IMG/VR virus record: IMGVR_UViG_2910510430_000001
Span: 19,888 to 83,887 of that record
Length of the DNA stretch: 64,000 bases
From: a virus
Taxonomy: Duplodnaviria > Caudoviricetes
Direction: 5' to 3' (one strand)
The first letter of the stretch is position 1. Every line of letters starts with the position of its first letter. Of the stretch, positions 17,371 to 32,783 are shown piece after piece. The notes beneath the pieces are model-generated. The model ran no database searches and was not told the origin of the DNA. It worked only from the letters and a program-made list of their open reading frames with translations. The translations under genes and the position numbers were made by a program.

Positions 17371-17372
17371 GC

Positions 17373-17819
17373 TCACTCCTCCTTCATCGCCTTGTCGGTG
17401 ATCGCCTTGGCGATCGCCCGGTTCTTGGGATCCTGCAGCAGGCCGATCACAACAGCTGCTACGTGGGGGATCTCCTGCTCGTCGTCGAGCCACTTCACGA
17501 TGCGCGCCTGGGGCACGCCGTAGAGCAGCGCGAAGCTGTGCGGGTTCAGCTCGGCCGTGCGCAGGGCAACGGCCAGTTCCTCGCCGGTCATGCGAGTGTA
17601 TTCCCCCTTGCGCTTGGACTCGACCCGGCGATGGGTGAGCTTGGCAGAGAGGGCGCGCTGTGCCGCGCCCTCCGCTTCCTCGGCCGTGTCGAACCGGGCC
17701 ACCTGACCGCCGACCTTCACCAGCTCGGGGACGAAACCGGCAAGGGCGAACTGCCCGACGAACCGATCTCCTCGGGCGAGGGCCTTGGCGATGGGGCGGG
17801 ATGCCGGCTTGTCGGCCAT
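17373..17819 (-). CDS. Protein with C-terminal HTH
   Basis: MTGEELAVAL...FALLYGVPQARIVKWL. Confidence 0.6.
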   Translation of the reverse strand: MADKPASRPIAKALARGDRFVGQFALAGFVPELVKVGGQVARFDTAEEAEGAAQRALSAKLTHRRVESKRKGEYTRMTGEELAVALRTAELNPHSFALLYGVPQARIVKWLDDEQEIPHVAAVVIGLLQDPKNRAIAKAITDKAMKEE

Positions 17820-17881
17820 GTCGGAACTCCGTGCGCTGGCCTGCTCGTATAGCGCAGGGACATGCAGGAAGTCAGGTCCGA

Positions 17882-19438
17882 TCACCATTTGCGTCGCCCG
17901 ATCACGCACAGCAGCGTGTTCACGTTCGTCCCGCACTCGGCGAAGGACCGGTCCGGGAGATCCTGGAAGAAGCCGCGCTTTTCAACCAGCTCGCGGAAGG
18001 CCTGGCTCTTCTTGGTCTCCCGGAACTCGGTACCGGCAGACATCACCGACACCAGAATGCCGTCGGGCTCCAGGAAGTTCAGGGCGTGGACGACGTGGTC
18101 GATGTCACGCTCCCGGTCGAAGGGCGGGTTCATGACGATGCGATCGTAGAGCCCGGTCACGTCCGGGTTCAGGGCGAGGAAGTCGCAGTGGTGCACCTTG
18201 CGGTACCGGCCGGCCATGGTGAGATCCCGGGCCCGCTCGTTGTGGATCTCGACGCAGTCGACGATCGGCTTGGAGACCTTGGTCGGGATGCAAATCCGCT
18301 CCCGCTCCTCCTCCGACCATTCCCAATTCGCGTCGACGATGATGTCTTCCGCTGCCAGGCGGGCAAGGTTGCCGCTGCCGGCGGAAGGCTCGAGGATCTT
18401 CACCCTCGCGTCGGTGGCCTTCGCCGCAGCGTGGAGCCGGGCCTCCTCGATGACCTTCTCGCCGACAGCGAGCGGGGTCGGGAAGAAGCCGTAGTTCTTG
18501 GCGAGCCCGGTCTTGGCGGTCTTCAGCGGGTCGGCGTTCTGCGGGACATTCTCGTTGTCGCCGATCGCCTCGCCGTAATACTCGCCGAGGATCTTGTTGA
18601 CCTTCTGCACGAGATCCTTGCGCTGCATCCACAGATGGGCGTTGCCGTTCTTGAAGATGCGGATCTTGAAATACTCGTTCTCGTGCTCGGACTGGTGCGG
18701 TCCGCGGCTGCCTCGCCGCTCATACTCAACCTGCCCGACGATGCCGGCATAGTTTGGAGGCACCGGCTTACCGTCGAGGACGAGGAAGGCACGCTCGATG
18801 TCCATGAGGTTCTCGGACTGCCGTCCGCTCATGCTGTAGTGCATGAAGCCAGAGAAGGCGTAGTCGAGGATCACCCGACTGCCGATCTTCCAACCATCGT
18901 GCGAGCGGAACCGGCGATCGAGCTTGGCGAAGACGTTGGCAATGCCGCGGCGCCAGATGAAGTCGGCTTCGGCCATGAAGCCTTCGAGCGTGGCCTGCAC
19001 GTTCTCGACCGTCACCGGCGGCAAGCCGGCGTCGATCTCCTCCTGGTTGATGATCTCGCCATCGCGGCCGGACCGCTCGGGAACGTAGCGCATCTGGTCG
19101 CGCAGCTGCTTCTTCGCCTCGGAATCCATCAGGCGCTCCAGGTCGGTGCGCTCGATGATGTGGCTCCAGATCTGGATGTCGGTCAGCCGGCGGGCGACCC
19201 GTTGAAACTGATCGGCATCGGGAAGGCTGACGGCATTGTAGAAGGCCTGCACCTCGCGGGCGTCGCGGTCGTACCAGGCGGTGCCGCCGGGCGCCGCGGC
19301 CTTCACCATCTGGTGCGCGGCCATCATCTTCTCATGGGCGTCGGCGATGGCGATGAAGGCGTCGCCGTAGAGTTCGAGGGCGCGGTCACGACGCGAGCAG
19401 ATCTCGTCGATGGTGGCGCGGTGGATCATCTGGTTCAT
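17882..19438 (-). CDS. DUF4942-like domain plus N6-adenine methyltransferase
   Basis: FKNGNAHLW; FFPTP; ILEPSAGSGNL; IVMNPPF; an in-frame upstream ATG at 19519 also has an RBS. Confidence 0.85.
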   Translation of the reverse strand: MNQMIHRATIDEICSRRDRALELYGDAFIAIADAHEKMMAAHQMVKAAAPGGTAWYDRDAREVQAFYNAVSLPDADQFQRVARRLTDIQIWSHIIERTDLERLMDSEAKKQLRDQMRYVPERSGRDGEIINQEEIDAGLPPVTVENVQATLEGFMAEADFIWRRGIANVFAKLDRRFRSHDGWKIGSRVILDYAFSGFMHYSMSGRQSENLMDIERAFLVLDGKPVPPNYAGIVGQVEYERRGSRGPHQSEHENEYFKIRIFKNGNAHLWMQRKDLVQKVNKILGEYYGEAIGDNENVPQNADPLKTAKTGLAKNYGFFPTPLAVGEKVIEEARLHAAAKATDARVKILEPSAGSGNLARLAAEDIIVDANWEWSEEERERICIPTKVSKPIVDCVEIHNERARDLTMAGRYRKVHHCDFLALNPDVTGLYDRIVMNPPFDRERDIDHVVHALNFLEPDGILVSVMSAGTEFRETKKSQAFRELVEKRGFFQDLPDRSFAECGTNVNTLLCVIGRRKW

Positions 19439-19538
19439 GGGTTTCTCCTGTTTGCCACGTTTGGCGGTGCATTCGGGCGGGCGATGTGCCCGCCCTGGTG
19501 GTCCTGTTGCGCTGGGCATGGTGTCTCCTTCGGCTTGG

Positions 19539-19871
19539 TCAGCGGGATAGGGCGGCGCGGAGAATTATTCGAATGTCCGACTCGTGGACGTACAGGCTGC
19601 GGTACGGACCCAATGCCTCTTGCGCTGCCCGCACCACGTCATCGGGCACGTCAGATGCGATGGGCTGGGGGGCGGCGAAACCGGAGAACGCGAAGTCACG
19701 CCCCGCCTTCTTCTCGTCGTCGTAGGCGTGCAGCAACCAACCCGGCTCGGGATGCCACTCGGTCGAGGCGTAGCTGATGCCGATCGGACGAACGGTGCGG
19801 GTCGCAGTCTCGCCGCGCCAGTTGGTATAGGTGAATGTCAGCGGCGGAATTTCGGTCTTCGCGTCTTCCAT
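19539..19871 (-). CDS. Stand-alone WYL-domain protein
   Basis: FTYTNWRGETATRTVRP...WLLHAYDDEKKAGRDFAFSGF. Confidence 0.8.
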   Translation of the reverse strand: MEDAKTEIPPLTFTYTNWRGETATRTVRPIGISYASTEWHPEPGWLLHAYDDEKKAGRDFAFSGFAAPQPIASDVPDDVVRAAQEALGPYRSLYVHESDIRIILRAALSR

Positions 19872-19965
19872 GGTCGTCTCCATGCCGGCGCTGCCGGCGT
19901 TCACGATTGAGGGGGGAGGCGGCGGGTCACCCTGCCGCTCAGGTCAAGTCAGAGGTGAGGTCAGG

Positions 19966-21138
19966 TCACACCCGCATCGGCATCAGGACAGCCGACCAGG
20001 TCGGCGAGGCGCCGCGAATGACGGCGGGGCTGCCGCAATCGGAGAACCGCATTTCGAACTCCTCGCCGATCTCGCCGGCGACGGCTGCCAGGGCCTTGAG
20101 GTAGCTGGCGTTGAAGCCGATCTCGAACTCGTCCACCTCGGTGGTGCAGGTGATGTCGGCCTCGGCCGTCCCGGCATCCGGGCTGCGCACCATCAGCCGG
20201 CAGCTGCCGGGCGACAGCGTCAGCTTCACCGCCCTGCCGCGCTCGGTCGAGATCACGGTGACGCCGTCGACTGCGGCGGTCAGGGCATCGCAGTTGAAGG
20301 TCACCGCCTTGTCGTTCGCCGACGGGATCACCCGCTGGTAGTCGGGGAAGGTGCCGTCGATGACCTTCGACGTGATGGTGATGCGGCCGAAGGTCATCCG
20401 GACCTTGGCCGTCTGCACCTCGATCGCCACCTCGCCCCGCTCCCGGGACATCAGCTTCTCAACCACCTCGATTGTCTTCCGGGGGATGATCACGCCGGGG
20501 ATTGCGGCGGTGCCGGCAGGCGCCGTCACCGTCTTGATGGCGAGGCGGTGCCCATCGGTGGCGACGAAGCGCAGGTCGCCTTCGCCGTCCCCGGTCACCG
20601 GCCGGTGCATGAAGATCCCGTTGAGGTAGTAGCGGGTCTCCTCCTTGGAGACCGCGAAGGACACCATGCCGAAGGACCCGGTCAGGGCCGGCGCCGACAT
20701 GACGAAGCTGTGAGTGAAGGTGCCGGGCTCGACCTCTGGATAGTCGGCGACTGGCAGGGTCGGCAGCTTCATCGACGCGGCGCCGTGGGTGATCGTCAGC
20801 GGAGCGTCTTCGTCGCCGCCGAGCGGCGCCGTCAGCTCGATCGTGTCGGCCTTGGACTTGGTGACCAGGTCGCGCAGCGAGTGTGCCGGAACGGTCGCAG
20901 CGAAGCGCCGATCGAGAGCCTCGCACGGCACCCGGACAGCGATCTCGATGTCGAGGTCGGTGGCAGTGATGATCAGCTGGTCGGCATAAGTCGACAGCTT
21001 GACGTTCGACAGGATCGGGATGGTGTTGCGCTTCTCAATGACCTTGATCGCGGCGTCGAGGCCGGCCTTCAGGTGGGTGCGGGCCATCGTAGCGACAGCC
21101 TGGTGCATGTTGGCGCGGATGGGGGTGACGTTCGTCAT
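19966..21138 (-). CDS. dnaN: DNA polymerase III beta sliding clamp, phage-borne
   Basis: IEKRNTIPILSNV, ATDLDIEI, EETRYYLNGI, ATDGHRLA, GTFPDYQRVIP, IGFNASYL, VLMPMRV. Confidence 0.95.
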   Translation of the reverse strand: MTNVTPIRANMHQAVATMARTHLKAGLDAAIKVIEKRNTIPILSNVKLSTYADQLIITATDLDIEIAVRVPCEALDRRFAATVPAHSLRDLVTKSKADTIELTAPLGGDEDAPLTITHGAASMKLPTLPVADYPEVEPGTFTHSFVMSAPALTGSFGMVSFAVSKEETRYYLNGIFMHRPVTGDGEGDLRFVATDGHRLAIKTVTAPAGTAAIPGVIIPRKTIEVVEKLMSRERGEVAIEVQTAKVRMTFGRITITSKVIDGTFPDYQRVIPSANDKAVTFNCDALTAAVDGVTVISTERGRAVKLTLSPGSCRLMVRSPDAGTAEADITCTTEVDEFEIGFNASYLKALAAVAGEIGEEFEMRFSDCGSPAVIRGASPTWSAVLMPMRV

Positions 21139-21294
21139 GTCGATGTCCTTCTGTTGAGGGTCCGCACAATTGCGGGGGTCGGCATGCTGCCGGGACACGG
21201 CCACCACGACGGTGACCGTCGCCTTGCGGCATGATCCTGTCTTCATCTATGTCAGGTGAGACGTGACGCTCCTTTTCTAGCCGAAGGCAAAAAT

Positions 21295-21831
21295 ATGTTC
21301 GATTCGCTTTCATCGATCTGGAAGTATTTCGAGGCGAGCGAGAAGGTCGGGTGGATTGCCGTTACCGCTGGTAGCCTTCTCATGCTGTCCGCCGAGGTTG
21401 ACCATGGATGGCTAACCGGCCTCGACTTCGTCGGTCTTGCCGGTCAGACCGTCATAATTGTCGGCGCCGCGATCGTGGTCGTGAACGCGGTGAGCAGGGC
21501 GTGGATGTCGTTCTCCAAGTGGAGCGAGGGCAGACGCGAGCGGCTCGACACAGCTGTTGCTGAACGAAAGGCGGAGGAGAATGCTCTAGCCAACATCGAG
21601 GCGCTCGATGAGCATGGGTTGGTACAATTGATCTGGCTCCTGGCGAACGATCGGCGACGTTTTCAGTACTCCAACGTCCTCTTTCGAGCTGGCGTAGCAA
21701 GGCACGCACCCAACTGTACGGCGATCTACGAGTTACGTCCGATTTTCTGGGAGAACCGCGAGCGTCTTTTGGAAGAGCATGACAAACTCCGTATTCCGCA
21801 GCAATTCCCTGCAACTAGGTACGTCGCCTAG
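21295..21831 (+). CDS. Membrane moron, SieB-like superinfection-exclusion candidate
   Basis: Two N-terminal TM segments, opposite strand, visibly more AT-rich; stop abuts the VWA stop. Confidence 0.55.
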   Translation: MFDSLSSIWKYFEASEKVGWIAVTAGSLLMLSAEVDHGWLTGLDFVGLAGQTVIIVGAAIVVVNAVSRAWMSFSKWSEGRRERLDTAVAERKAEENALANIEALDEHGLVQLIWLLANDRRRFQYSNVLFRAGVARHAPNCTAIYELRPIFWENRERLLEEHDKLRIPQQFPATRYVA

Positions 21832-23043
21832 CTATGCCTCGAGGTGGATCGCTTCGCCGAACGGCGTCCGGCTGCTGACGTTCTGAAACTCCCGGGGATC
21901 GCCTGGTACCGCCCACAGCACCGGGCAATCGGGCTCGTCGCCGAAGTCGGTGACGTATAGGTCGGTCAGGTAGACGACGGCCCTGGCGTCGCTGGCATTC
22001 TCCCGCACCCATTCGAAAGTGTCGGCGAAGGCGGTGCCGCCGCCGCCTAGCATGCGCAGATCCACGACATCGCCGGTCTCGTATTCGTCATGTCCCTGCA
22101 CGGCGGCGTCGGCATAGATCACCGTCACCTTGTCGATCGCGCCGTCGCCGAAGGCGCCGTTGATCTCGGCGGCGAAGGCGTCGAGCATGTCCTTCGTGAT
22201 GGAGCCGGACGTGTCGACAGCGAAGACGATGTGCGACACGCCGTCAGACACCAGCGACGGCAGGACGTAGCCCATCTGCAGGAAGCGGCGGTTCGGCCGG
22301 GACCAGGAATAGTCCCGGTTCTGCGACTGGTCGATGAAGCGGCGGAACACCTGCCGCCAGTCGACCTTGGGCTGCAGAAGCTGGTCGACGATGCGCTGCA
22401 GGGCACCGGGCAGGGAGCCGGCGTTCGCCGCCTTGGCGATCGACGCGGCCTGACGGATCTTCACCGTCATTTCCGCCTCAGCTGCCGCCTTGGCCGCCTC
22501 GTCATGCTGGCCGCAGGCATCGAGCACCTCGCCGCAGCCGCCGGGATCGTTGCGCTCGCCGGCGCCCGGCTGGCCGGTGCCCTGGCCGCCATCCTCATCC
22601 TCGTCATCGAGGAGGCGATAGATTTCCTCGGCACCGAGCCCGGTGTATTTGCGGTCGAGCAGGCCACCTTGCGGCATGACCATCGGCGGGCGCTTCAGGT
22701 TCTTCGTCTTCTGGATCTCGTCGGCATAGTCCTGCAGCTCGACGTTGATCGCGAAGTCTGCGGCGATGTTGAACCGGCGGTGCTGCCGGTCGCCCCGCCT
22801 GGTGTGGTGCATCGAGGCATTGTGCATGATCTCGTGGGCGATGACGAAGACCAGCTCCTCACGGCTCAGCTTGTCGACGAAGGGCGGGTAATAGATCAGC
22901 CGGCGGCTGTCGGTCGCCATCGTCTTGCAGATGGCGCCGTCGGAGTCCTCCTCGAGCATCAGCTGCACGGCGAGGGCGCCGAAGAAGGGGTGATCCCACA
23001 TCAGGGCGGTGCGGGCGGAGAGGATCTTGGTCTCGGTGTCCAT
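21832..23043 (-). CDS. DUF2201-type metallopeptidase (HExxH) plus VWA domain
   Basis: AHEIMH, NIAADFAIN, PKVDWRQVF, VDTSGSI, GGGGTAF, YLTDL. Confidence 0.9.
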   Translation of the reverse strand: MDTETKILSARTALMWDHPFFGALAVQLMLEEDSDGAICKTMATDSRRLIYYPPFVDKLSREELVFVIAHEIMHNASMHHTRRGDRQHRRFNIAADFAINVELQDYADEIQKTKNLKRPPMVMPQGGLLDRKYTGLGAEEIYRLLDDEDEDGGQGTGQPGAGERNDPGGCGEVLDACGQHDEAAKAAAEAEMTVKIRQAASIAKAANAGSLPGALQRIVDQLLQPKVDWRQVFRRFIDQSQNRDYSWSRPNRRFLQMGYVLPSLVSDGVSHIVFAVDTSGSITKDMLDAFAAEINGAFGDGAIDKVTVIYADAAVQGHDEYETGDVVDLRMLGGGGTAFADTFEWVRENASDARAVVYLTDLYVTDFGDEPDCPVLWAVPGDPREFQNVSSRTPFGEAIHLEA

Positions 23044-23138
23044 GGCGGGGTCTCACGATTGAGGGAAGGGTTGTTTGACGTTCGGTAGGGTGTAATAGCT
23101 GTCTGATCGTAGAGGAAACAGCTGATGCGGAGGTCAGA

Positions 23139-23462
23139 ATGAAGACGTTCTTCAGGTGCGTACTCATCGCCGCGGGCCTAGCGTCTTCTACCGCAGCTGG
23201 TGATGAACATTCTGTCGGGGGTAAGTCTGCTCTCGAGCGTGGTTCCCCTGCCCCATCTGGCGGTCTGCCCCCCGCCGCAAATGTGCCGGAAGCAGAGGAT
23301 GGATGCGTGGTCAAAATCGAAGGTGCGGGGAGCTCATTCGCCGACGAGTACTGCAAGCCCGAAAATACACCGATCGACGATGGGACTGTCGCCACTTCGA
23401 ATGATGGGGTTGAAGGACAAGGAACCATGGATATGATGAACTCGGAAGCCGTTCAGAAATAG
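23139..23462 (+). CDS. Moron, small secreted acidic protein
   Basis: Signal-like N-terminus; opposite strand. Confidence 0.5.
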   Translation: MKTFFRCVLIAAGLASSTAAGDEHSVGGKSALERGSPAPSGGLPPAANVPEAEDGCVVKIEGAGSSFADEYCKPENTPIDDGTVATSNDGVEGQGTMDMMNSEAVQK

Positions 23463-23476
23463 AGTAGAAGAGCAGA

Positions 23477-24052
23477 ATGCATCTCTTCACTCTATGGCTC
23501 CTGATTGCTGTCGGTTCAGCCACGCTGTGTTGGTCTGCAGTGTTGAGGTTCCTAAAGCGAGGCGAAAGATTAGAGGCTTTCGTGGTGTTGCTTGGGCTAA
23601 CCGCAATCGCAGCAACTGCGGGGCTTACAGGCGGACTTAGCCGAGTCGGTGCTGTCGGAAGCGTTATCGCAGCTGCACTTGGACTCATGAGCGGCGTCGT
23701 ACTATTTTTGTTTGCGGCAGATCGATCGAAGGGCACGATCGTATCGATCGGAGCGATCGCGTTCTCTTTGTCACTAAGTCTCGCCTATTTCGAAGCGTCT
23801 GAGCTAAGGGCAGTACCAGAGAGGTACGCTTACTGGCGTGACCGCTGTGTTTCGATATATTCCGGTTCTACCGTTGTCGCGGACGAGAATATCGTGAACG
23901 TCCGCGACGGCATTTTCGGCCGAACGTGTGCCCGCATCATCAGGTCTGAGCAGGATAAGCTTCTGGCCGAGGACGAGCCATTGTTGCAGGGCTTGTGGGA
24001 TCGGCTAGCTGCCGGAGTGTGCTCGATTCTACCGATCTGCAGAGAGCGATAG
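23477..24052 (+). CDS. Moron, four-TM membrane protein
   Basis: Hydrophobic helices; visibly lower GC. Confidence 0.65.
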   Translation: MHLFTLWLLIAVGSATLCWSAVLRFLKRGERLEAFVVLLGLTAIAATAGLTGGLSRVGAVGSVIAAALGLMSGVVLFLFAADRSKGTIVSIGAIAFSLSLSLAYFEASELRAVPERYAYWRDRCVSIYSGSTVVADENIVNVRDGIFGRTCARIIRSEQDKLLAEDEPLLQGLWDRLAAGVCSILPICRER

Positions 24053-24067
24053 TTTTAGGCGAGACAA

Positions 24068-25054
24068 TCAATTCAACGTCACGTCCTGGTTCTCTGTCGC
24101 CCACGTCGTGAACGCCTGAGTGTGCGACAGGCCGGGGTCACGGCGCACCGCGTCGATCACCATCATGATGTTGAACTCGCGGCTGATCCGACTGGTGTAG
24201 GCCATGGCCGCGCCGAAGGTCTTGCGGTCCACCTTGCGGGCAAGGCCGGCGCTGATCGCATACTTGGCGGCCGGATCCTTGACGAGCGGGGCGCCGGTCG
24301 GATTGGCCAGCACCAGGTCGAGCGAGGGCAGATCCTTGTAGACCCGGACGAAGCCTTCGAATTCGGCCGCTGCGCCTTCACCGACGAGGCCGGTGACAAG
24401 CGACAGGCGGAGCGCTTCCGGAGCGTTGGCGATCTTGGCCACCTGCGACCATGCCCGGGGCGTCGGGAACGCCCGCAGGTCGTTCCCTTCCATGTTGTGC
24501 AACAGGCCGGAGCGAAACCGCACGAAGGCGACGACCATCGGGTCGACGTTGTTCTTGAACGCCCAGGCGGAGAAGGATTCGACATCCGGCTCTATGTCGA
24601 TGTGGGCGAAGCGGTTGGCGAGCGCAGTGGGCATCCGCTGCGCCGCCGCCCGGTCCGCCTGCCGGTTGCCGGCGGCGATGATCCGCCAGCCCTCGGGTAG
24701 GCGATACTCACCGACCTTGCGGTCGAGCACCAGCCCGAAGCATGCCGCCTGCACGCTGGCCGGTGCCGCGTTCAGCTCGTCCATGAAGAAGATGCCTTCC
24801 TCGCCGTCGCGATCGGCACGGGGCAGGTCATCCGGGGCGAGCCACTTGGCAGTGTCGCCATTGACGGAGGGCAGGCCGCGGAGATCGACCGGATCGCGGA
24901 GGATGGCGCGGAAGTCGATCATCGGGATGTCGCGATCGTTGGCGATCTGGCGGACGGTGTCCGACTTGCCGACGCCTGGCGCTCCCCACAGGAAGACGGG
25001 GATGTCGGCGTCGAGGTAGGCAGCGAGCGCCTTGGTAGCGTTCATCAGGTTCAT
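24068..25054 (-). CDS. MoxR-like AAA+ ATPase
   Basis: WGAPGVGKS, FFMDELN, AAGNR, ALANRF, PTPRAW. Confidence 0.92.
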   Translation of the reverse strand: MNLMNATKALAAYLDADIPVFLWGAPGVGKSDTVRQIANDRDIPMIDFRAILRDPVDLRGLPSVNGDTAKWLAPDDLPRADRDGEEGIFFMDELNAAPASVQAACFGLVLDRKVGEYRLPEGWRIIAAGNRQADRAAAQRMPTALANRFAHIDIEPDVESFSAWAFKNNVDPMVVAFVRFRSGLLHNMEGNDLRAFPTPRAWSQVAKIANAPEALRLSLVTGLVGEGAAAEFEGFVRVYKDLPSLDLVLANPTGAPLVKDPAAKYAISAGLARKVDRKTFGAAMAYTSRISREFNIMMVIDAVRRDPGLSHTQAFTTWATENQDVTLN

Positions 25055-25100
25055 GGGTCTCTTCCTTCGTTGCACAATTGCAGGGGGGGTGAGCGTCAGC

Positions 25101-25394
25101 TCAGTTCTTGGCGTTGCGCCATTGCTGGCAGATCATGTCGGCGTTGCCGGAGCTCGAGAATTGGCCGGCGATATTGCCGGCCATCATTGCTGTTTCGGAG
25201 AGCGTGGTGCTCACCGATTTGCCTTGCGCCTCGGCGGACTTCTCCACCGCACGCATCCAAACCTCCTCGGTGATCTCGCCGGGACAAAGCGCCTTAACCG
25301 TGCCGATGAGGATGGCCGCCTTCGGGAAGTCGTCGGCGGCGAGAGCCGGGGCAGAGAGACTGCCGAGTAGCGCGGCAAGCAGAAGCTTCTTCAT
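25101..25394 (-). CDS. Small secreted protein
   Basis: Signal peptide MKKLLLAALLGSLSAPALA. Confidence 0.7.
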   Translation of the reverse strand: MKKLLLAALLGSLSAPALAADDFPKAAILIGTVKALCPGEITEEVWMRAVEKSAEAQGKSVSTTLSETAMMAGNIAGQFSSSGNADMICQQWRNAKN

Positions 25395-25579
25395 CGGTGT
25401 TCCTTCGGCTGTTGCGCACGTCGGCGCTTGCGAGGTTCAGGCGGGGGCGTATCGACCCCCGCCATCTTTCTCAACTCTGCGACACCCTTCTGCAATCCGT
25501 CCTCGTATTTCGCGAACGGCATCCAGAAGGCTTCGCGATCGGTGACGCCGGCAAGGCGTTCGAGTTTGCCGATGTTCAT
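25391..25579 (-). CDS. Hypothetical protein
   Basis: ATGA overlaps on both sides. Confidence 0.6.
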   Translation of the reverse strand: MNIGKLERLAGVTDREAFWMPFAKYEDGLQKGVAELRKMAGVDTPPPEPRKRRRAQQPKEHR

Positions 25580-25836
25580 GCGGCCTCGCTCTCGTCGTCG
25601 ACAGCGGGATCGAAAGCCTGCGGCCCGACAAGATCGCGGGCAGATACGATCATCGCCTCGAAGGCAGAGAACTCATCGAGCAGGCGATCGTCGGACAGGT
25701 CAGCGCGCATATCTTCGGGATCGTCATAGTCCTCGTTATCTGCGGCGAAGCAATCGTCGAGGGTCATCAGGCGCGCCATGTTCTTGGTGTAGGCGAGGAG
25801 GTCTCCATAAGAGGGTTGAGTTTTAGGAAGCGACAT
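25576..25836 (-). CDS. Small very acidic protein
   Basis: ...ADNEDYDDPEDMRADLSDDRLLDEF... Confidence 0.6.
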   Translation of the reverse strand: MSLPKTQPSYGDLLAYTKNMARLMTLDDCFAADNEDYDDPEDMRADLSDDRLLDEFSAFEAMIVSARDLVGPQAFDPAVDDESEAA

Positions 25837-26668
25837 CTTCTTCATCCTCCTCGTTCTGCACGGGCACCAGCACCCATGCTTGCACCCAGGTGCCGTCGTT
25901 TCCGCGCGATGCCTCGGCACCCTCGTCGATGTTGATCTCGTCGCTGCCGTACTGTTCGCGGGCGGCATGGACTTCGTCGTCGGTGGCGAGGGTGGCGATG
26001 GGCTTCGGCTCTAGGTCGACGAGCTCGTGATGGTCGTCCTCGTTCTCGTCGCGGATGTAGATGACCGTCGGGTTGGTGCCGTCCACCTCAGTTTCGATCC
26101 CATCATAGTTGATAGAGCCAATCAGTCCGCTTTCGTTCAGCTCCTTGATCTTTTGAAGCGCACTATCGGGGGACGTCGTTTCAACAGTGATGTCGTAATA
26201 GACGCGGGCATCGACGCCGACCTTGCAGCTGAATTCCTGCATCACTGGCTCGTCGTCGCCGGGCTCGTCATCCTCGTTAGGCTCGAAAAGGCCGGTCTCG
26301 ACCGCATGGCGCAGAGTGTTCTTGATCGCCGCGTCACAGCCGGTCTCGTGCCATTCGGTCAAAAGAGCCTTGCCGGCGGCATACTCCGCGCTAGCCTGCC
26401 ACTCGGCATAGGTTTCGAAGCCGAGTTCCTTTCCGCGTTCGTGGCCGATGTGCGGGGGCATGTCGGAAAGCGTCGGCCCGGTTGGCGGCTCGGGAAGGTG
26501 GCGGACGTCGAAGGCAAACTCGCTGTCTTCGCCTTCCGATATATCAGTCGTGAACCAATAGGTACGGGGGCCTTGGCCGAGGTCGTCGTCTTTGTAGACG
26601 CACCAGATCGAAACGTTCTGATGGCGGATCATGCGCTCGGGCGCGACCCATTCTTGGCGGTAGGGCAT
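25823..26668 (-). CDS. Acidic multi-segment hypothetical protein
   Basis: AGGAG RBS; D/E-rich; ...EINIDEGAEASRGNDGTWVQAWVLV. Confidence 0.7.
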   Translation of the reverse strand: MPYRQEWVAPERMIRHQNVSIWCVYKDDDLGQGPRTYWFTTDISEGEDSEFAFDVRHLPEPPTGPTLSDMPPHIGHERGKELGFETYAEWQASAEYAAGKALLTEWHETGCDAAIKNTLRHAVETGLFEPNEDDEPGDDEPVMQEFSCKVGVDARVYYDITVETTSPDSALQKIKELNESGLIGSINYDGIETEVDGTNPTVIYIRDENEDDHHELVDLEPKPIATLATDDEVHAAREQYGSDEINIDEGAEASRGNDGTWVQAWVLVPVQNEEDEEDVAS

Positions 26669-26682
26669 GGTGTCCTCCAGGA

Positions 26683-26910
26683 TTACGGGGCGATCAGTTC
26701 GCTGTGGCCTTCGCTGAAGCCGCCGCCGTAGCAGCGCCGGCATTCGAGGCGGTCGAAGTCTTCACCGTCGGCGGCGCCCCATATCTTGCGCCGGCGGAGC
26801 GCCGGGAACATGCGCTCCAGCATGTTGCCGGGGCCGGCCAGGCGCTCAGGCTTGGCGTCCAGATTGTCGATGTGGGTGACGTGTCCGCAGTTCGCGCAGC
26901 GGCCGAGCAT
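26683..26910 (-). CDS. Small zinc-finger protein
   Basis: CANCGH...CRRC. Confidence 0.6.
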   Translation of the reverse strand: MLGRCANCGHVTHIDNLDAKPERLAGPGNMLERMFPALRRRKIWGAADGEDFDRLECRRCYGGGFSEGHSELIAP

Positions 26911-27155
26911 CAGGCTTGCTCTTCGACTGGCACCATGACCAGCTGGCTGAACACCCAGCTGACACCGTCTTCGTCGAGGAAGACCATTTCGCCATCGCGC
27001 TCGACCGTCTCTGCCTCGTCCCAGAAGACGTCGGTGCCGCCGGCATACTCCGGGACGCGGGTCTCGGGGTCGATGCCAGTGATGTTGGCGCGGCCAGATA
27101 GCCGCTCCATTGTGCCGACGATCGGCGAGCCGGTCGGGGACTGAAAGTCTGCCAT
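26910..27155 (-). CDS. Small acidic protein
   Basis: GGAG RBS; preceded by a hairpin module. Confidence 0.65.
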   Translation of the reverse strand: MADFQSPTGSPIVGTMERLSGRANITGIDPETRVPEYAGGTDVFWDEAETVERDGEMVFLDEDGVSWVFSQLVMVPVEEQA

Positions 27156-27370
27156 ATGATGTTCTCCGAGTTGCACAATTGCGGGGAGGAGGAGGCGGGT
27201 CGGAGCCCGCCCCCGGTAATCAGGTTGTCACGGTTTCTTGGCGCCGCACTTTCGGCAGAAGAGGCTAGCTTTTGTTAGGGGCTCGCCGGTTCCAAGGACG
27301 ACCAAGGGGAGCGGCTTGCGCCATTCGTGAGCGCAGACTTTCCGCTTAAGCCAGAGCGATATCGCCCCTC

Positions 27371-28291
27371 TCACGCCAGGAACCCCGACACATCCTCGAG
27401 GATCTTCGCCGCTTCGGCGGCGACGTCCCGGCGCTTGCCCTCATCCTTGCGCAGCACCGCCGCATCATAGGCGGCGAGCGGGGCGAGCTTGTCGGCCATC
27501 GCGGCCAGCTCCGGATCGCCGGTGATGTTGAGCGACGGCAGGATGCCGATCAGGTCGCGGACGTTCTCGACGAGCGAGTCCTTGAAGATGCCCTCCGAAC
27601 GGTCGCCCTTGCCCTTGGCCGGCTTGTAGCCGTTGAGCCGCTCGACCATGCGGCCGGTCACCTCGGCGATGCGGCGATAGACATCCGACACGGCGGTCTT
27701 CGTCGCCTTCTGCACATGCGCCTCGATCTCGGCGCGGATCTCGGCCGCCTGCGCCTCGCTCATCGACACACGGAAGTCGTCGGCTGACGGGACCGGCATG
27801 ACCTTCATGTCGATCGAGAACTTGTCCCGGATCTCTGAGACGGTCGGGTAGTCGTCGAGGTTGAACATGCCGTTGAGGCGGACCCGGGCGTCGGCGACGT
27901 GCTTCGGATACTCGGCGATGAAGGCGTCGACGGCGGCGTCGAACTCGCCCTTCACGCGGCGAAACCAGGCGGCGTGCTGCATGTAGAGCTGGTTCGACAT
28001 GATGCGGGAGCCGCCGTCGAGCCACGGCAGGGTGCGCTCGTTGAACTCGGTGCGGGCGGCGTTGGCGATCTTGGCGATCGGATCGAGCGCGGTCTTGTCG
28101 AGGAGCAGCTTGTTATAGCGGCCGGCGTCGGCGGCGGCGTTGTGCGAGGAGTTGACCTCGTCGGTGATCTGGCGATCGAGGCGGCGCCCGGTCCACTGCG
28201 ACATGGACAGCGTCACGATCATGGCGCGGGCGGCGAGGGTGTTGGAGGCGACCGAGTCAGTGGCCGCACGGATTGGGGAAATGGCGTTCAT
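27371..28291 (-). CDS. DUF3150-like protein of MoxR/VWA neighbourhoods
   Basis: SQWTGRRLDR, GRYNKLL, RTLPW, FNLDDYP, GIFKDSLVEN, LNITGDPEL. Confidence 0.7.
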   Translation of the reverse strand: MNAISPIRAATDSVASNTLAARAMIVTLSMSQWTGRRLDRQITDEVNSSHNAAADAGRYNKLLLDKTALDPIAKIANAARTEFNERTLPWLDGGSRIMSNQLYMQHAAWFRRVKGEFDAAVDAFIAEYPKHVADARVRLNGMFNLDDYPTVSEIRDKFSIDMKVMPVPSADDFRVSMSEAQAAEIRAEIEAHVQKATKTAVSDVYRRIAEVTGRMVERLNGYKPAKGKGDRSEGIFKDSLVENVRDLIGILPSLNITGDPELAAMADKLAPLAAYDAAVLRKDEGKRRDVAAEAAKILEDVSGFLA

Positions 28292-28361
28292 GCTGGTGTT
28301 CCTTTCGGAGGGTGCCACGATTGGCGGGGGTGCTCAGAGGTGAGCGGGGGAGCTGGGTCTG

Positions 28362-28670
28362 CTACTGGCTGTCGCCTCGCCAGTCGCGATAGTCGTCTTC
28401 GGGCGGCTCGTAGATGCCGTCGAGCGTCCAGAAGCCGATGGCGAGGATGTCTTCGCACACGTCGGTCGGGTCCTGGCCGTAGAACCCGCGCCATTCCTGC
28501 ACGTTGAAGCGCTGGATGACGGAGTAGATCTCGGCGTCGTCAGCGTCGCTGACATCAAGCCAGAGGACGGTGCCGGTCTGCACGTCGACGGTGAGGGTGC
28601 CGTTGTTGCCGAAGACCTCCATCGTCGGGCGAGAGGTCTTCATCGGCATGGGCGAGCGTTCGGGCTGCAT
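28362..28670 (-). CDS. Small acidic protein
   Basis: AAGGAAG RBS; preceded by a hairpin module. Confidence 0.65.
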   Translation of the reverse strand: MQPERSPMPMKTSRPTMEVFGNNGTLTVDVQTGTVLWLDVSDADDAEIYSVIQRFNVQEWRGFYGQDPTDVCEDILAIGFWTLDGIYEPPEDDYRDWRGDSQ

Positions 28671-28784
28671 GGTCTTCCTTTCGTGCCACGATTGGCGGGG
28701 TGCCGGCGGACCGGCGGCGTCACTCTGAAGCGAACTTCAGAGTGGTTGATAGTGCTAGAAGACGGGAGCTAGAGGCGCAGGCGA

Positions 28785-29276
28785 CTAAAGCCGACTGCAG
28801 GAGCCCGCTGCCATCGACAGTTTCGCACCGGGCACTGCAATCCGAGGTGCATAAAAGAATGTCATCCGATCGAGGTCAAAATTGTATGACAAAGATAGGT
28901 TCGCGGTGCACAGAATTGTGCCGCCGAGAAGATATGATTGATTCTCATTCAGGGGGTAGCATTCCGAAAGTTTTCGGATCTTACTTCGTTCGTCGCTGAC
29001 AAATACTGTGTAGTTTGATGCGTATTCCTCAAACCGATAATCTTTCGGCATATTCGGCGTGACGGTCAGTTGGAACGCGTGGTCGTTGGGGTTCTCATCC
29101 AACTCCGATACATCCCCAGTATCATCCATACGAAATGCCGCGATGTGAGCAGGTATGCAGAGATAGGTCCCGGCGTAACGCTCGTCGTTGTGAGGCGGTG
29201 TCCATGTCCCCTGCGAACACGCCTCGCTGATGGGCCAAATGATGGAACAAAGCACAACGGCTGCTCGCTTGAGCAT
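28785..29276 (-). CDS. Lower-GC secreted moron protein
   Basis: Signal-like N-terminus; GGAGG RBS; AT-rich codons. Confidence 0.65.
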   Translation of the reverse strand: MLKRAAVVLCSIIWPISEACSQGTWTPPHNDERYAGTYLCIPAHIAAFRMDDTGDVSELDENPNDHAFQLTVTPNMPKDYRFEEYASNYTVFVSDERSKIRKLSECYPLNENQSYLLGGTILCTANLSLSYNFDLDRMTFFYAPRIAVPGAKLSMAAGSCSRL

Positions 29277-29407
29277 TCAAGACCTCCTACTGGGGATTGG
29301 ACTCCGCAAGAACCATACTTTGTCGTTCCGGTCATCGAGCCGCAAGCGAAGCGTCCGCGCCGCCGGACGGGCCATCGGGCGCCCAAGGCAGCTATACGGT
29401 CGGTAAC

Positions 29408-29764
29408 CTAAAACCATACCCGCCGACTGAAAAGCACTGCCGCTCCACAGACGGGTGGCAGCGATTCGGGATCATCGAGCGGGTTCCGGGTCAGCCAGGC
29501 GTTCCGATAGATCGCCGTGGCAGTGATGTTGCGGGGCTGAGATCCAAGCGCACTGTTCTCGCCGACGAACATATCACGGCGCTCGCCCTGATAGAGGACC
29601 GTCAGGTGCTCGAAGCCACCGGGCTGGAATATCGGCGCCAGCAACTCCTTCAGGTGGTCGTAGCTGGGCTCCGGCTTCAGCATGACGGTCCGCTCCTCGG
29701 GAGCGCCAATTACGGCCGGGATGATGGTCATGAAGGTCTCGATAGACCCTGGGCGCGCGGGCAT
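29408..29764 (-). CDS. Hypothetical protein, DUF3846-like
   Basis: MFVGENS...RNITATAIY...VCGAAVLF. Confidence 0.55.
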   Translation of the reverse strand: MPARPGSIETFMTIIPAVIGAPEERTVMLKPEPSYDHLKELLAPIFQPGGFEHLTVLYQGERRDMFVGENSALGSQPRNITATAIYRNAWLTRNPLDDPESLPPVCGAAVLFSRRVWF

Positions 29765-30078
29765 CAGTACGGCGCCCCATTCTCCGGCTCGCCGTAGCAG
29801 GCGCGCAGGTTGCCGTCGGTCGGCTCTTCGGCGGCAAGGCGGCAGGCGGCGAGATCCTGGCCGACGAGGAGCACATCGTCGTCGGGGATAGGGTCCGCCC
29901 CGATCGCGATAAGGCAGGCCACCGGGTCGGAATCGAACTCACACATGGAGGGTGCCGACCAGAGAATGGCCCGGTCCTGCGGCAGGGTGACGAGGGGCGA
30001 CGGCTTGGTCACGGTGACCGCGCCGAGGAGCGCGCCGAACAGGCCGGCGGCGGTAATCGAGAGGGTGCTGAAATGCAT
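29764..30078 (-). CDS. Small membrane/secreted protein
   Basis: N-terminal TM; preceded by a hairpin module. Confidence 0.6.
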   Translation of the reverse strand: MHFSTLSITAAGLFGALLGAVTVTKPSPLVTLPQDRAILWSAPSMCEFDSDPVACLIAIGADPIPDDDVLLVGQDLAACRLAAEEPTDGNLRACYGEPENGAPY

Positions 30079-30160
30079 GGTGTATCCTTCGTTGCCACGA
30101 TTGGCAGGGGGTCGGCCTAGCGGCCGGTAGGCGAGCGCGGAGACGCTCTCCAGTCTGACG

Positions 30161-30511
30161 CTAGTGGAAGTGTCCGGCAGGCCGGGAGGGATCGAAGTGC
30201 TGAACGCACTTCGCGATTGCGGCCATGGTTGAATGCGTCTCGTCGGTGACGGGCAGCATCATCATGGCGTCAGGGTTCGTCGGGTGCTCGACGCCTGTCA
30301 GAGGAATGACGCTCACCTGTGTCTGGAGCCGGAGCACGGGCTCGTCGGTGACGCGGATGGTCAGACCTGGGAATGCCGTCTCGCAGTAGCGAGTAAGCGG
30401 CTCGATCCACGCGGAGCCGCCCCATTCTGGCCCGTAGGGAGGCGTGACGTAGAACTCCGTGATCCGCTTTTCGGCGGTCTGGGGGCGGCTGGAAGCGACG
30501 TTGATTTCCAT
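30161..30511 (-). CDS. Hypothetical protein under a predicted LexA box
   Basis: CAGGAG RBS; own promoter. Confidence 0.65.
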   Translation of the reverse strand: MEINVASSRPQTAEKRITEFYVTPPYGPEWGGSAWIEPLTRYCETAFPGLTIRVTDEPVLRLQTQVSVIPLTGVEHPTNPDAMMMLPVTDETHSTMAAIAKCVQHFDPSRPAGHFH

Positions 30512-30527
30512 GAAGGCTCTCCTGTTT

Positions 30528-30562
30528 GTTCTATATTCGTTCCGCATAGGAGGAGGAGTCAA
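30528..30562 (-). promoter_or_regulatory. Alphaproteobacterial SOS box GTTC-N7-GTTC (30528-30542) overlapping a TTGACT promoter
   Basis: GTTC TATATTC GTTC; TTGACT at 30562-30557. Confidence 0.75.
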
Positions 30563-30717
30563 TACGTGTTCTTTTGGAAGGAACGGCGCCTGACGAGGAT
30601 GGCCAGGCGCCGTGCGGGATTTACCGCCGGGCGCGCGCCGCGCTGCGATCTACATGGCATGCTCCTTTCGCTGGAGAGCAGGGAAGGGCCGGCGGATGTT
30701 TGCGCCGGCCGAACGGG

Positions 30718-30855
30718 TCAGGCGCGCACCTCCCAAAGGATGCGGCGAACCTCGTCGGCAGCCTCGCGCGAGGTGGGCTCGCGGCCCAGGCGGGCGGCGA
30801 GCTTGGCCCAGATCGTATGCGGGCCGGCGTTGTGCCAGGTGACGGTGACGATCAT
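30718..30855 (-). CDS. 45-aa protein
   Basis: MIVTVTWHNAGPHTIW...; ATGA coupling. Confidence 0.5.
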   Translation of the reverse strand: MIVTVTWHNAGPHTIWAKLAARLGREPTSREAADEVRRILWEVRA

Positions 30856-31064
30856 GCGCGCACCTTCGTCTTGAAGTGCTTCACCTCGCCATCGAACTGG
30901 CACAGGTCGCAGGAGGCGGCGGACTCGTTGGTCCATTCGTGGCCGCCGTGGACTTCTTCCGTGCCGTCGGTGGTGAGCTGCACGGTGGTCAGACAGACGA
31001 TCTGAATGCCGTGATCCTTGCCGCATTGCGGGCAGGCCATGCCCCATTGTGATCGGATGCTCAT
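30852..31064 (-). CDS. Small zinc-finger protein
   Basis: CPQCG...CDLC; ATGA coupling. Confidence 0.65.
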   Translation of the reverse strand: MSIRSQWGMACPQCGKDHGIQIVCLTTVQLTTDGTEEVHGGHEWTNESAASCDLCQFDGEVKHFKTKVRA

Positions 31065-31240
31065 GCGCGCACCTCGGGGCGGCTCGCGTCTGCGATGACC
31101 GGCAGAATGCGGCGCCCTTCCATGGCGCGGTTGCGGCGCTCCTGGGCGTCGAGAAAGCGGCGGATGTCTTCGCGGGCTTGGCGCCGGGCGCGCTGGGCGA
31201 AGGTCTCGAAATGCGGATGGCGCAGGTCGGACGTGGGCAT
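31061..31240 (-). CDS. Small Arg-rich protein
   Basis: GGAG RBS; preceded by a hairpin module. Confidence 0.55.
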   Translation of the reverse strand: MPTSDLRHPHFETFAQRARRQAREDIRRFLDAQERRNRAMEGRRILPVIADASRPEVRA

Positions 31241-31406
31241 GACGGTTCTCCGGTCTGGAGGTGCGGCACGATTGCCGAGGAAGGGCCGAGCGGCCCGAAG
31301 ATGGCTCGCGCGGGCGCGGCCATCGTCATGCAGCTCGGGTAGGGCAACGGGCGAAAGGCAGGCCCGTTGCCGGTTGGTGGGCCGCGAATGCGGTGGGACC
31401 GGGCCA

Positions 31407-31622
31407 TCAGTAGCCCAGCCAGGAGCGGACGTCATCCAGTGAGACGTGGCCGCGGTCGTCGATGGGGAAGGTCGTCGTCTCGTCGAACACGCGGTCGTCG
31501 AGGAAAGCGATGCCATCGGCCGGCCCAAGGCAGGGGGCGGAGGCGAGCAGGCCGTCGGGCGTGACGGTGGCGAACTGGCCGTGATCGAGGATGAAGGCGA
31601 CGGCGGACGTAGCGGTGCACAT
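31407..31622 (-). CDS. Small acidic protein
   Basis: GGAG RBS; preceded by a hairpin module. Confidence 0.6.
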   Translation of the reverse strand: MCTATSAVAFILDHGQFATVTPDGLLASAPCLGPADGIAFLDDRVFDETTTFPIDDRGHVSLDDVRSWLGY

Positions 31623-31679
31623 GGTCAGGATCTCCGATTAGGACGCCACGATTGGCGGGGTTGGCCTAGCGGCCATGTC

Positions 31680-31704
31680 ACGGGACGCCGTAGGGGCGTC
31701 CCGT
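31680..31704. terminator. Strong GC hairpin downstream of the first early gene
   Basis: ACGGGACGCC-GTAGG-GGCGTCCCGT; no clear U tract. Confidence 0.4.
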
Positions 31705-31736
31705 CACGATTGCAGCTAGGTGGGCAGGGGCGAGGC

Positions 31737-32240
31737 TCAGGCAGCCTTGCGGTCGGCAGCCTTGGGCATCTGGACGACTTCGCCGGCCGGCTTCTTCAGG
31801 AGGCGGATTGCGCCCTCGATGGCGCCGATCGTCTTCGCGGTCGCGCCCTTTTCCTGCATCTTCTTCAGGAACGTCTCGAGGGTCCGGAGTTCGTCGAAGT
31901 CGGCGGCGTTCTTCTTCGCGTCGGTGGCGTACTCAGCCGGGGACACGGTGAAGGCGGTTTCGAGGTCGGACGTCGCCTTGGCGTCATAGGTGAAGGCGAG
32001 CGCGTCCTTGTCCCATGCGACCTTGCCGAATTTCACGGCCCACTTGCGCAGCGCGCCGCGATAGTTGGTCGGCGTCACGTTGTAGAGCGTGTTGAGGTGC
32101 GAGGCGCAATGGTGGACCTCGACATGGTTGATCGCGCCATAGGCGACTTCGTGCGTTGCGGCTGCAAAGGTCGCGGCGACCTTGCCATAGCCTGCAATGC
32201 GCTTGGCGAGGGTCTTACCGGTGAGAATCTTGATGGACAT
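31737..32240 (-). CDS. First early-array protein with strongly biased codons
   Basis: MSIKILTG...LNTLYNVTPTNYRGALRKWAVKFGKV; preceded by a hairpin module. Confidence 0.75.
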   Translation of the reverse strand: MSIKILTGKTLAKRIAGYGKVAATFAAATHEVAYGAINHVEVHHCASHLNTLYNVTPTNYRGALRKWAVKFGKVAWDKDALAFTYDAKATSDLETAFTVSPAEYATDAKKNAADFDELRTLETFLKKMQEKGATAKTIGAIEGAIRLLKKPAGEVVQMPKAADRKAA

Positions 32241-32507
32241 GGGTTTAGCCTTTCGAGGTTTGGCACGATTGCCGTTTCGTTCCGATTGGAACGGCGCAAC
32301 GGCCGGACCCTTGCGAGCCCGGCCGTTGAAACTTTCCAATCTGTCGGACGCGGTTTCAGTGGGAACCGCGTCAATCCCGATGTCGCTTTTTTTCCGTTGG
32401 TTTGACTATCCAACCGCCCATGCCTTTGCGGTTGTGGGGTGCGCGGCCGCTGTGATCGGCATTCAACGGCTTTCAAGGCCGTTTCGCTTTCGGTTATCCC
32501 CATCTTG

Positions 32508-32783
32508 CTAGGCACTGTGCCCGCCGTTGTCCCATCGCTCGCTTACTAAGTGCAGGTCCCGCAAAGCTTTTACCCTTTGCCGTTGCCTACTGGCATTCGC
32601 GCCAGTGTTCCCCCGATTGGCATTCGCGCCAATCGTTGCCCGTTCCGTGTTCACACGATGGAAGTCCCAGCCTCTAGCGTTTCCGCCAGTTCGCCCGGTC
32701 TTTCCGAACTCCAATCCAATTTTCGCAAGCGTGGATTGTGCCGCTTCCTTCCCTTTGCCCCTCCATCCGTCCGGCTTTGTCAT
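32508..32783 (-). CDS. Possible small basic protein
   Basis: Open frame in an otherwise non-coding region; weak RBS. Confidence 0.3.
   Translation of the reverse strand: MTKPDGWRGKGKEAAQSTLAKIGLEFGKTGRTGGNARGWDFHRVNTERATIGANANRGNTGANASRQRQRVKALRDLHLVSERWDNGGHSA

Follow-up and report, generated by a model that had tools for sequence, protein, structure and literature searches.

A start-linked hairpin and a co-occurring HTH protein in an alphaproteobacterial temperate phage look like an undescribed phage-wide switch

Twelve genes of a leftward accessory array in a temperate phage begin with a short hairpin whose stem varies in sequence while its pairing is kept. The phage is known from an 83.9-kb IMG/VR provirus (IMGVR_UViG_2910510430_000001), and the DNA analysed here, referred to as the window, is a 64,000-nt stretch covering bases 19888-83887 of that record. 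More than 100 copies of the element, always on the gene strand, are found in related prophages of Aurantimonas, Brucella/Ochrobactrum, Ensifer, Rhizobium and Peteryoungia, and one family of helix-turn-helix (HTH) proteins, represented here by P0001, co-occurs with it. The hairpin and this protein together look like an undescribed phage-wide switch of the kind formed by anti-CRISPR regulators (Aca). Our preferred reading, to which we would give a little less than an even chance, is that an Aca-like HTH protein binds the hairpins in 5' untranslated regions (UTRs) and controls translation of the cassettes together. An earlier, sequence-only reading had drawn attention to the repeats; the protein, which that reading could not see, is what is new here and is our main lead.

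A hairpin tied to translation starts

With 20 copies in the window where 5.6 are expected, the core string CAAWYGTG is 3.6-fold over-represented (none of 100 shuffles reached 20), and 13 of these copies lie on the minus strand between 19456 and 32271. Twelve minus-strand genes (19454-32293; Table 1) carry a run of C followed by a 12-nt hairpin, SSCA-AYYR-TGSS, that ends 8-24 nt 5' of the ATG; the open reading frames (ORFs) downstream encode 59-518 amino acids. The sequence-only reading had assigned such a module to the same twelve genes, and its core coordinates all match ours, as does the lack of an upstream hairpin at 23052; its range of 8-28 nt to the ATG was too wide. Positions 2 and 11 of the 12-mer pair in every array copy (C-G 5, G-C 5, T-A 2), and RNA folding returned this hairpin (hairpin 2) as drawn in 10 of the 12 modules. 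A covariance model, which the earlier reading had suggested building, was trained on 104 copies and then scanned over the window, where it separated 14 sites (17-27 bits) from a background whose best match scored 10.9 bits.

The element had been described as a feature of the array, and twelve copies are indeed there, but it is not confined to it. Two plus-strand copies lie in the PR operon and two minus-strand copies in the PL operon, 1.0 and 1.9 kb ahead of the window start, one of the latter preceding an excisionase-like gene; the late operon has no copy. The nesting of the post-cro copy in the loop of a GC stem is kept in the Aurantimonas prophage (L254 12146-12167). A 55-codon ORF (8038-8205) with no Shine-Dalgarno sequence (SD) may follow this copy, overlapping the start of the next gene. 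Within the accessory block, every gene preceded by a gap has the motif except ORF 30161-30511 and the low-GC ORF 28785-29276, which look like self-promoted morons; the other motif-less array genes all overlap or abut their upstream neighbour. Before ORF 30161-30511, a GAAC-N7-GAAC box of the alphaproteobacterial LexA type (30528-30542, minus strand) lies within a TTGACT...TATAGA promoter-like stretch, which suggests a mid-array moron that has no motif and is driven from an SOS-controlled promoter of its own.

Relatives were located via the DUF3150 protein, together with several IMG/VR records, and the Aurantimonas prophage is 83% identical. In these phages the element likewise precedes array genes. 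Across 104 copies the conserved block spans 20 nt (-5 to +15) and comprises an A/C-rich run ending in CCC, the half-stem SSCA, a loop A-Y-Y-R, the half-stem TGSS, an A and further A/C; the fourth loop base, G here and in the Aurantimonas relative, is A in the other phages. The flanks are almost free of G from -8 to +17. Upstream of -5 nothing is conserved among the 104 copies, and neither a -35-like nor a -10 signal is seen. Measured from the 12-mer, the median distance is 5 nt to the SD core (interquartile range (IQR) 4-6) and 16 nt to the start codon (IQR 14-18).

Among the genomes sampled, the element is restricted to these phages. In six whole host genomes the matches cluster in the prophage and on the gene strand, and the best matches outside prophages fall within coding regions, with no SD or start, and are read as chance. 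Genomes of Roseibium and Hoeflea, whose prophages have the same type of array, gave zero matches at E <= 0.3, and 149 further genomes sampled from the order gave 0-3 scattered matches each and no cluster. The statement that no named motif corresponds holds for Rfam, which had no match over the window at gathering thresholds and chance-level matches only over 19000-33000 at E up to 5; nor did we find a paper describing the motif. A megablast of the array against plasmids gave no match, and searches of IMG/VR with exact 14-15-mers returned mostly chance singletons, bar a few related prophage records. The same 12-mer ends three roughly 45-nt repeats (CGCAATCATGCG) in an unrelated low-GC contig (L164, IMGVR_UViG_3300023672_000084, 556-1311), which are a different element with a common core. 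In the motif-less Hoeflea prophage (L245), CTGAAA or CCGAAAA followed by GGA stands 10-20 nt before several start codons (starts 7746, 9971, 11273 and 12909) and may be a replacement signal in this sister array.

Other roles for the motif were considered and set aside. Its RTG is in frame with the gene as a possible start codon in 5 of 12 cases, the chance level. It contains no CcrM/GANTC or other methylation site. The variable stems argue against a single antisense partner, as expected of a small-RNA target, and no reverse-strand copy is present; as an anti-SD, the C-run would pair poorly, CCCC with GGAG.

Covariation was assessed on 111 distinct sites picked by context with the four outer positions unconstrained, a set blind to pairing. 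Positions 2 and 11 are Watson-Crick pairs in 106 of the 111 (G-C 65, C-G 37, T-A 4; shuffle mean 53) and positions 1 and 12 in 86 (shuffle mean 39.5); 0 of 10,000 shuffles reached the observed pairing at either. Each of the five sites unpaired at 2/11 either occupies the wrong strand or has no CAA where the loop begins, and we take them for chance matches. Orthologous sites of the window and the Aurantimonas relative (L241) show compensatory double changes, G-C to C-G flips, at three genes. Because the stems covary strongly and orthologous sites show such double changes, selection on a folded single strand rather than on a duplex operator, as the sequence-only reading had proposed, is supported by the sequence comparisons. 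We accept this view since a homodimer on duplex DNA that accepts five different half-sites would offer no reason for the two halves to be identical.

The earlier picture of a double hairpin fared less well. A 5-9-bp GC hairpin (hairpin 1) stands a few nt 5' of the C-rich linker in 11 of the 12 array modules and was returned by folding in 10 of them, and across relatives it is found at 55 of 104 sites against 30 +/- 4 in shuffles. It is thus enriched but optional: near-universal in this phage's lineage only, and replaced in some relatives by a canonical terminator. Hairpin 2 is the conserved core and the double form a lineage trait, so that the earlier interpretation stands as to the folded strand and falls as to the double hairpin as the conserved unit. 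Counts of G.U and A.C in hairpin 1 (6 vs 6) are uninformative as to which strand folds.

The motif also marks the joints between cassettes. Relative to the Aurantimonas phage, homology restarts 7 nt before the 12-mer at 30105, and the window motifs at 28696 and 28325 both align to a single motif in the relative; the 102-aa cassette between them is therefore a clean motif-to-motif indel. In Brucella-type phages one cassette is deleted between two motifs, and another is replaced from motif position 12 to 2 nt before the next motif. The breakpoints of gain and loss in related phages, a comparison the earlier reading had pointed to, fall within a few nt of the motif and are compatible with a fixed crossover point or with recombination anywhere in the 17-nt repeat. 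The phage encodes its own RecT and a YqaJ-type exonuclease.

The co-occurring HTH protein and its phage setting

ORFs were compared between five motif-bearing and two motif-less prophages, over about 45 kb on each side of the DUF3150 gene. Twenty-three families were common to all seven, and the sole locus present in 5/5 motif-bearing and 0/2 motif-less prophages was P0001. Its family is absent genome-wide from both motif-less hosts, while searches of three motif-bearing host genomes and two phage records found exactly one copy in each, next to the motif cluster. Further IMG/VR loci encoding the family have motif matches upstream on its strand in 11 of 11 tested, and in the order-level genome sample full-length P0001 was found only in the genome with the motif cluster. 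In all phages examined it lies at the distal end of the array and on the same strand; here the gene has a promoter-like signal of its own, CTGACT-N17-CTATAC, at 17847-17875. Because the DUF3150 tree nests the two motif-less arrays, weakly (81/85), among motif-bearing ones, it suggests joint loss of motif and P0001, not simple distance.

P0001 had no match among Pfam families or PDB sequences, while its own family counts 165 representatives at E <= 1e-10. An AlphaFold model (predicted local distance difference test score (pLDDT) 87) contains a small N-terminal domain, a beta-sheet plus a long helix, and a five-helix C-terminal domain. Residues 72-140 form an XRE-type HTH that aligns to HigA2 (Z 9.7), Aca10 (Z 9.1; root-mean-square deviation 1.1 A over 57 residues), MqsA (8.8), Aca1 (8.7) and Aca2 (8.6); the whole model had no Foldseek match at E <= 0.001. 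When the N-terminal domain was modelled alone, about half of the top fold matches were double-stranded RNA-binding domains (dsRBDs), weakly (Z 4-5.4), a hint of a dsRBD-like fold rather than a secure assignment. Recognition-helix residues do not correlate cleanly with base 8 of the motif, the loop base that is A or G.

Other proteins were weighed as the factor. The WYL protein (19539-19883) and a zinc-ribbon ORF (30852-31064) were rejected, as neither region has a DNA match in the closest relative, and a second HTH ORF (17077-17370) because it occurs in motif-less phages too. This minus-strand, XRE-like ORF of 97 aa directly follows P0001 (TGAgcATG) and is found in both motif-bearing and motif-less prophages. 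On a Logan contig (L312, SRR26786855, 400-840), a distant P0001 homologue ends a co-oriented array (DnaN, DUF5983, DUF6197) in which ATGCCCCTAT repeats precede two genes.

The phage is a lambda-like temperate myovirus of a high-GC, rhizobium-like alphaproteobacterium. Its leftward block encodes DUF3150, a MoxR-type AAA ATPase, a DUF2201 peptidase/VWA protein, a DnaN-like clamp, a WYL-domain protein, a DUF4942 methyltransferase-like protein and many small ORFs, the last with almost no matches in PHROGs and Pfam. Two lower-GC insertions with plus-strand ORFs (21256-21831 and 23139-24052), one of them with predicted membrane helices, break the array beside modules 9 and 10. Between the array and a terS-like gene, a 2-kb non-coding stretch (32400-34360) with short repeats of the GGAC/GTCC type could be a cos/pac region or an origin. 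The immunity operators read CCTTAGC-N7-GCTAAGG (7681-7701), with a lone half-site at 7622-7628. PR has TTGACA at 7672-7677 and CTAAGG 18 nt on; cro is probably leaderless, because its ATG lies only 7 nt further.

Table 1. Motif copies and principal features of the window (scores from the covariance model)
Feature	Position	Strand	Gene or content	Bits	Remark
Module 1	32262-32293	minus	ORF 31737-32240 (phrog_1448)	19.8	hairpin 1 32278-32293; 12-mer GGCA..TGCC 32262-32273
Degenerate extra copy	31703-31714	minus			2 stem pairs only, then 8-bp GC hairpin; no gene behind
Module 2	31645-31675	minus	ORF 31407-31622	22.6	hairpin 1 31662-31675; 12-mer 31645-31656
Module 3	31265-31296	minus	ORF 31061-31240	18.8	next two ORFs overlap, motif-less
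Module 4	30094-30126	minus	ORF 29764-30078	23	
Module 5	28685-28715	minus	ORF 28362-28670	25.1	cassette missing in Aurantimonas relative
Module 6	28314-28345	minus	DUF3150 gene 27371-28291	26.7	
Module 7	27172-27214	minus	ORF 26910-27155	22.9	outer pair C.A
Module 8	25071-25103	minus	MoxR-type AAA gene 24068-25054	23.9	
Module 9	23052-23063	minus	DUF2201 peptidase/VWA gene 21832-23043	20	no hairpin 1, no SD; ATG 8 nt on
Module 10	21163-21192	minus	DnaN-like clamp gene 19966-21138	22.4	
Module 11	19900-19940	minus	WYL-domain ORF 19539-19883	20.9	
Module 12	19454-19495	minus	DUF4942 methyltransferase-like gene	19.8	true start 19438, as in relative L241
PR-operon copy	7992-8027	plus		21.7	12-mer 8008-8019; just after cro, inside loop of 7-bp GC stem
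PR-operon copy	9617-9628	plus	ORF 9640-9912	17	11 nt before ORF
P0001	17373-17819	minus	148 aa, candidate trans-acting factor		distal array end, same strand
RecT/YqaJ-exonuclease/helicase operon	472-6142	minus			
CI-type repressor	6991-7614				faces probably leaderless cro (7709)
Replication operon	to about 17100	rightward			
Leftward accessory block, 15 kb	17077-32240	minus			
Repeat-rich non-coding DNA, about 2 kb					between accessory block and late genes
Terminase-to-lysis genes		rightward			after the non-coding stretch

Possible modes of action

We propose a model where the 20-nt block would be transcribed within the 5' leader of every separately initiated early or accessory cistron and would serve as the RNA operator of one phage-encoded regulator, P0001. 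A protein located 5 nt from an SD would be expected to fall within the 30S footprint of the initiation complex. Hairpin-bound P0001 would sit at that distance, within the footprint, and could hold down translation, or alter the stability, of all 12-16 cassettes together, an Aca2-like control of anti-CRISPR operons raised to the scale of a regulon. The repeat of roughly 17 nt may double as a homology patch for gain, loss and swapping, because the same sequence flanks each cassette, and hairpin 1 would be the 3' stem-loop of the preceding cassette, outside the operator. The Aca2 and Aca1 HTH proteins provide the precedent: both bind covarying 5'-UTR hairpins, and Aca2 blocks the ribosome-binding site (PMC13551039). 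Among the options of the sequence-only reading, a binding site for a phage regulator comes closest, although the antiterminator that it coupled with this option fits less well than a translational operator, because the 12-16 copies each end about 5 nt before an SD. It is tempting to extend the proposal to a phage-wide post-transcriptional regulon in which a two-domain protein, dsRBD-like plus XRE HTH, would read 4-bp tetraloop hairpins and the operator would double as a recombination joint that moves cassettes with their control; this we consider possible but doubtful.

Several points weigh against translational control by P0001. Dimers of the XRE and MqsA types normally recognise palindromes in duplex DNA. 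At the outer pair, 19 sites have C.A and 1 has G.T, the reverse of what a sense-strand RNA helix predicts, and the excess would equal wobble pairs on the antisense strand; the A/C-only flanks give an alternative account of it and suit selection that keeps the sense RNA unpaired on either side of the hairpin. At 4 bp the stem is short, and single modules do not reliably fold better than shuffled sequences (z +0.4 to -3.5). A distant P0001 homologue lies at the far end of a similar array that has no motif, and any specificity of P0001 would therefore be confined to a closer clade. The link between P0001 and the motif is a correlation within one phage lineage. For Aca1, no translational silencing has been reported (PMC13551039).

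Since the candidate factor has an XRE-type HTH, a stoperator-like duplex operator deserves weight. An HTH dimer would bind the 12-bp palindromes and block transcription of the array, as lysogen silencing or late shut-off. MqsA-type dimers recognise short palindromes built of two 4-bp half-sites with 2-4 bp between them, the very geometry of the motif, whose invariant CA...TG resembles base-specific half-site contacts; in Cluster A mycobacteriophages, many oriented intergenic stoperators can silence long operons, and the promoter-like signal before the P0001 gene is like that of a lysogeny gene. We nevertheless find it unlikely. The outer half-site tolerates GC, CG, GG, TG or CT, yet its halves match in 106/111 sites; the copies are all co-oriented with genes despite a near-symmetric site; the fixed 5-nt spacing to the SD would be meaningless for a roadblock; and the CI operators at 7681-7701 are unrelated to the motif, a difference in sequence for which a CI stoperator was also rejected. 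Another reading is a portable translation-initiation module with no dedicated factor, in which the hairpin and its A/C-only flanks would insulate the SD after shuffling. The G-free flanks, which cannot pair with each other, the tight spacing and the motif-to-motif swapping of cassettes all suit such a module. We hold it to be very unlikely, as it leaves unexplained the invariant CA/TG closing bases, the A-Y-Y-R loop conserved across genera and the joint presence and absence of the motif with one protein family.

The placement of one copy per translation unit, at a fixed distance before the SD, would also suit RNA processing or stabilising sites, another option of the sequence-only reading. An endoribonuclease of host or phage would cut the early transcript at or beside hairpin 2, so that all cassette mRNAs would begin at an equivalent point just before the SD and the upstream fragments would end in 3' hairpins, an analogue of the RNase III sites of T7 early RNA or of Csy4-type insulation. 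The motif often follows closely on hairpin 1 or a true terminator, the interior of the array shows neither promoters nor terminators, and two SD-less genes start 7-8 nt after the motif, fitting near-leaderless processed mRNAs. This seems quite unlikely to us: RNase III would need much longer stems, no candidate nuclease accompanies the motif, the sole discriminating family being the HTH protein, and the A/C-rich context is, to our knowledge, not that of an RNase E-type site. A compact hairpin promoter of the N4 kind, with a template-strand hairpin about 11 nt before the start, or a loading site for elongation factors like nut or ops, is highly improbable. In its favour, the loop centre is some 11-12 nt away from the SD on its 5' side, a canonical terminator directly 5' of the motif in some relatives would call for restart or read-through, the C.A excess would amount to G.T wobble if the template strand folds, and the post-cro copy stands where lambda has nutR. 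However, Sigma70_r2 and NusG were unmatched across the 84-kb record, as was the T7-type RNA polymerase (PF00940), though its control search also matched nowhere, and the ORF survey of the window held no ORF of N4 size. A 4-bp stem cannot mimic a promoter duplex, 12-16 loading sites per phage are unlike nut or ops, and leader length would have to vary to serve both SD-bearing and SD-less genes. The N4/Frpo-like promoter of the sequence-only reading finds no support, with a stem of 4 bp, no sigma gene found and, within the search just described, no RNA polymerase gene either.

That reading had further suggested recombination joints of a cassette array, and the motif-to-motif breakpoints in relatives uphold these as a consequence of the repeats. 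A dedicated attC-like site, folded as single-stranded DNA, would account for the preservation of structure while stem sequence varies and for the breakpoints of cassette gain, loss and replacement, which all fall close to the motif (a few nt), but it is the explanation we believe least. The attC sites are much longer than the 12-20 nt seen here and have AAC/GTT core boxes; the motif lies 5' of genes and is tied to the SD, core genes of the PL and PR operons also have copies in front of them, no recombinase family tracks its presence, and recombination between 17-nt repeats by the phage RecT and YqaJ-type exonuclease explains the breakpoints equally well.

Relation to known phage elements and significance

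The Aca RNA motifs (PMC13551039) resemble the present system in pairing a small HTH protein with the genes it would control, in a covarying hairpin, here predicted to lie in the leader, shortly before the ribosome-binding site and in candidate targets of early accessory, anti-defence type; alignments of the P0001 HTH domain with Aca10, Aca1 and Aca2 reach Z 8.6-9.1. Unlike them, P0001 has no sequence-level relationship to Aca proteins and has an extra N-terminal domain, its binding is only predicted, the annotated array genes include no known acr gene, no promoter operator was identified here, and each phage has 12-16 operators, one per cassette, where Aca systems have one or two per operon. 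Other phage proteins act on initiation regions: the MS2 coat protein represses translation at the replicase operator, and T4 RegA controls many early mRNAs in this way. The A-N-Y-A tetraloop of most relatives falls in the MS2 operator loop class, whereas P0001 has no homology to coat protein or RegA, and the hairpin assigned to it stands before the SD and leaves the start codon outside. Cluster A stoperators, the sites of the L5 repressor gp71, are asymmetric duplex sites identical to the immunity operator. They share with the hairpins many oriented copies in short intergenic gaps of early operons and, presumably, a single phage repressor; here the immunity operator differs and the stems covary. 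Lambda nut sites (boxA/boxB), of which each early operon has one near its start that acts ahead of terminators, are matched in placement by the post-cro copy alone, and differ from twelve copies in one array that each lie beside an SD, none near PL.

Among repeats with a similar distribution, the start-associated sequences (SAS) and extended SAS (ESAS) of Cluster K mycobacteriophages occur in 11-19 oriented copies per genome, in the non-structural half and at translation starts; about half of the SAS are preceded by an inverted repeat with a variable spacer, and a translation role is suspected (PMC3203893). Many oriented, start-tied copies confined to non-structural genes are common to both. 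However, the SAS is an unstructured 13-bp GGGATAGGAGCCC-type sequence that lies immediately before the start codon and includes the SD, whereas here the consensus differs and a separate SD follows about 5 nt on; the ESAS has 17-bp arms of conserved sequence rather than a covarying stem upstream of the SD, and the hosts of the SAS phages are actinobacteria, not alphaproteobacteria. In T4-like phages, early-promoter stem-loops (PeSLs) are composite terminator/promoter elements, a stem-loop plus a sigma-70 early promoter (PMC4122927, PMC2839356). They too place a repeated stem-loop and a conserved signal between small accessory genes, with indels and replacements that end in the repeats, but here neither a promoter consensus nor, on the minus strand of the array, any promoter-like site is present, and what is conserved is a hairpin.

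Start-linked phage repeats such as the SAS/ESAS and PeSLs have been unexplained or half explained for over a decade, and RNA binding by HTH regulators has so far been shown only for single anti-CRISPR operons. A cis element with more than 100 copies is here paired with one candidate protein, making the proposal directly testable; the named lysogens are Brucella tritici LMG 18957, Brucella pecoris 08RB2639, Peteryoungia aggregata DSM 1111 and Rhizobium sp. CF080. If translational control by P0001 is borne out, the hairpin plus SD would be a simple marker for early and anti-defence cassettes in Rhizobiales prophages, and the pair would offer a compact orthogonal operator-repressor system for alphaproteobacterial engineering. 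A temperate phage would then be timing its whole accessory block post-transcriptionally. Should the two-domain regulon also hold, one switch would govern a dozen or more anti-defence-type genes, and it would constitute the first regulon-scale control of RNA by an HTH protein and a functional account of start-associated phage repeats.

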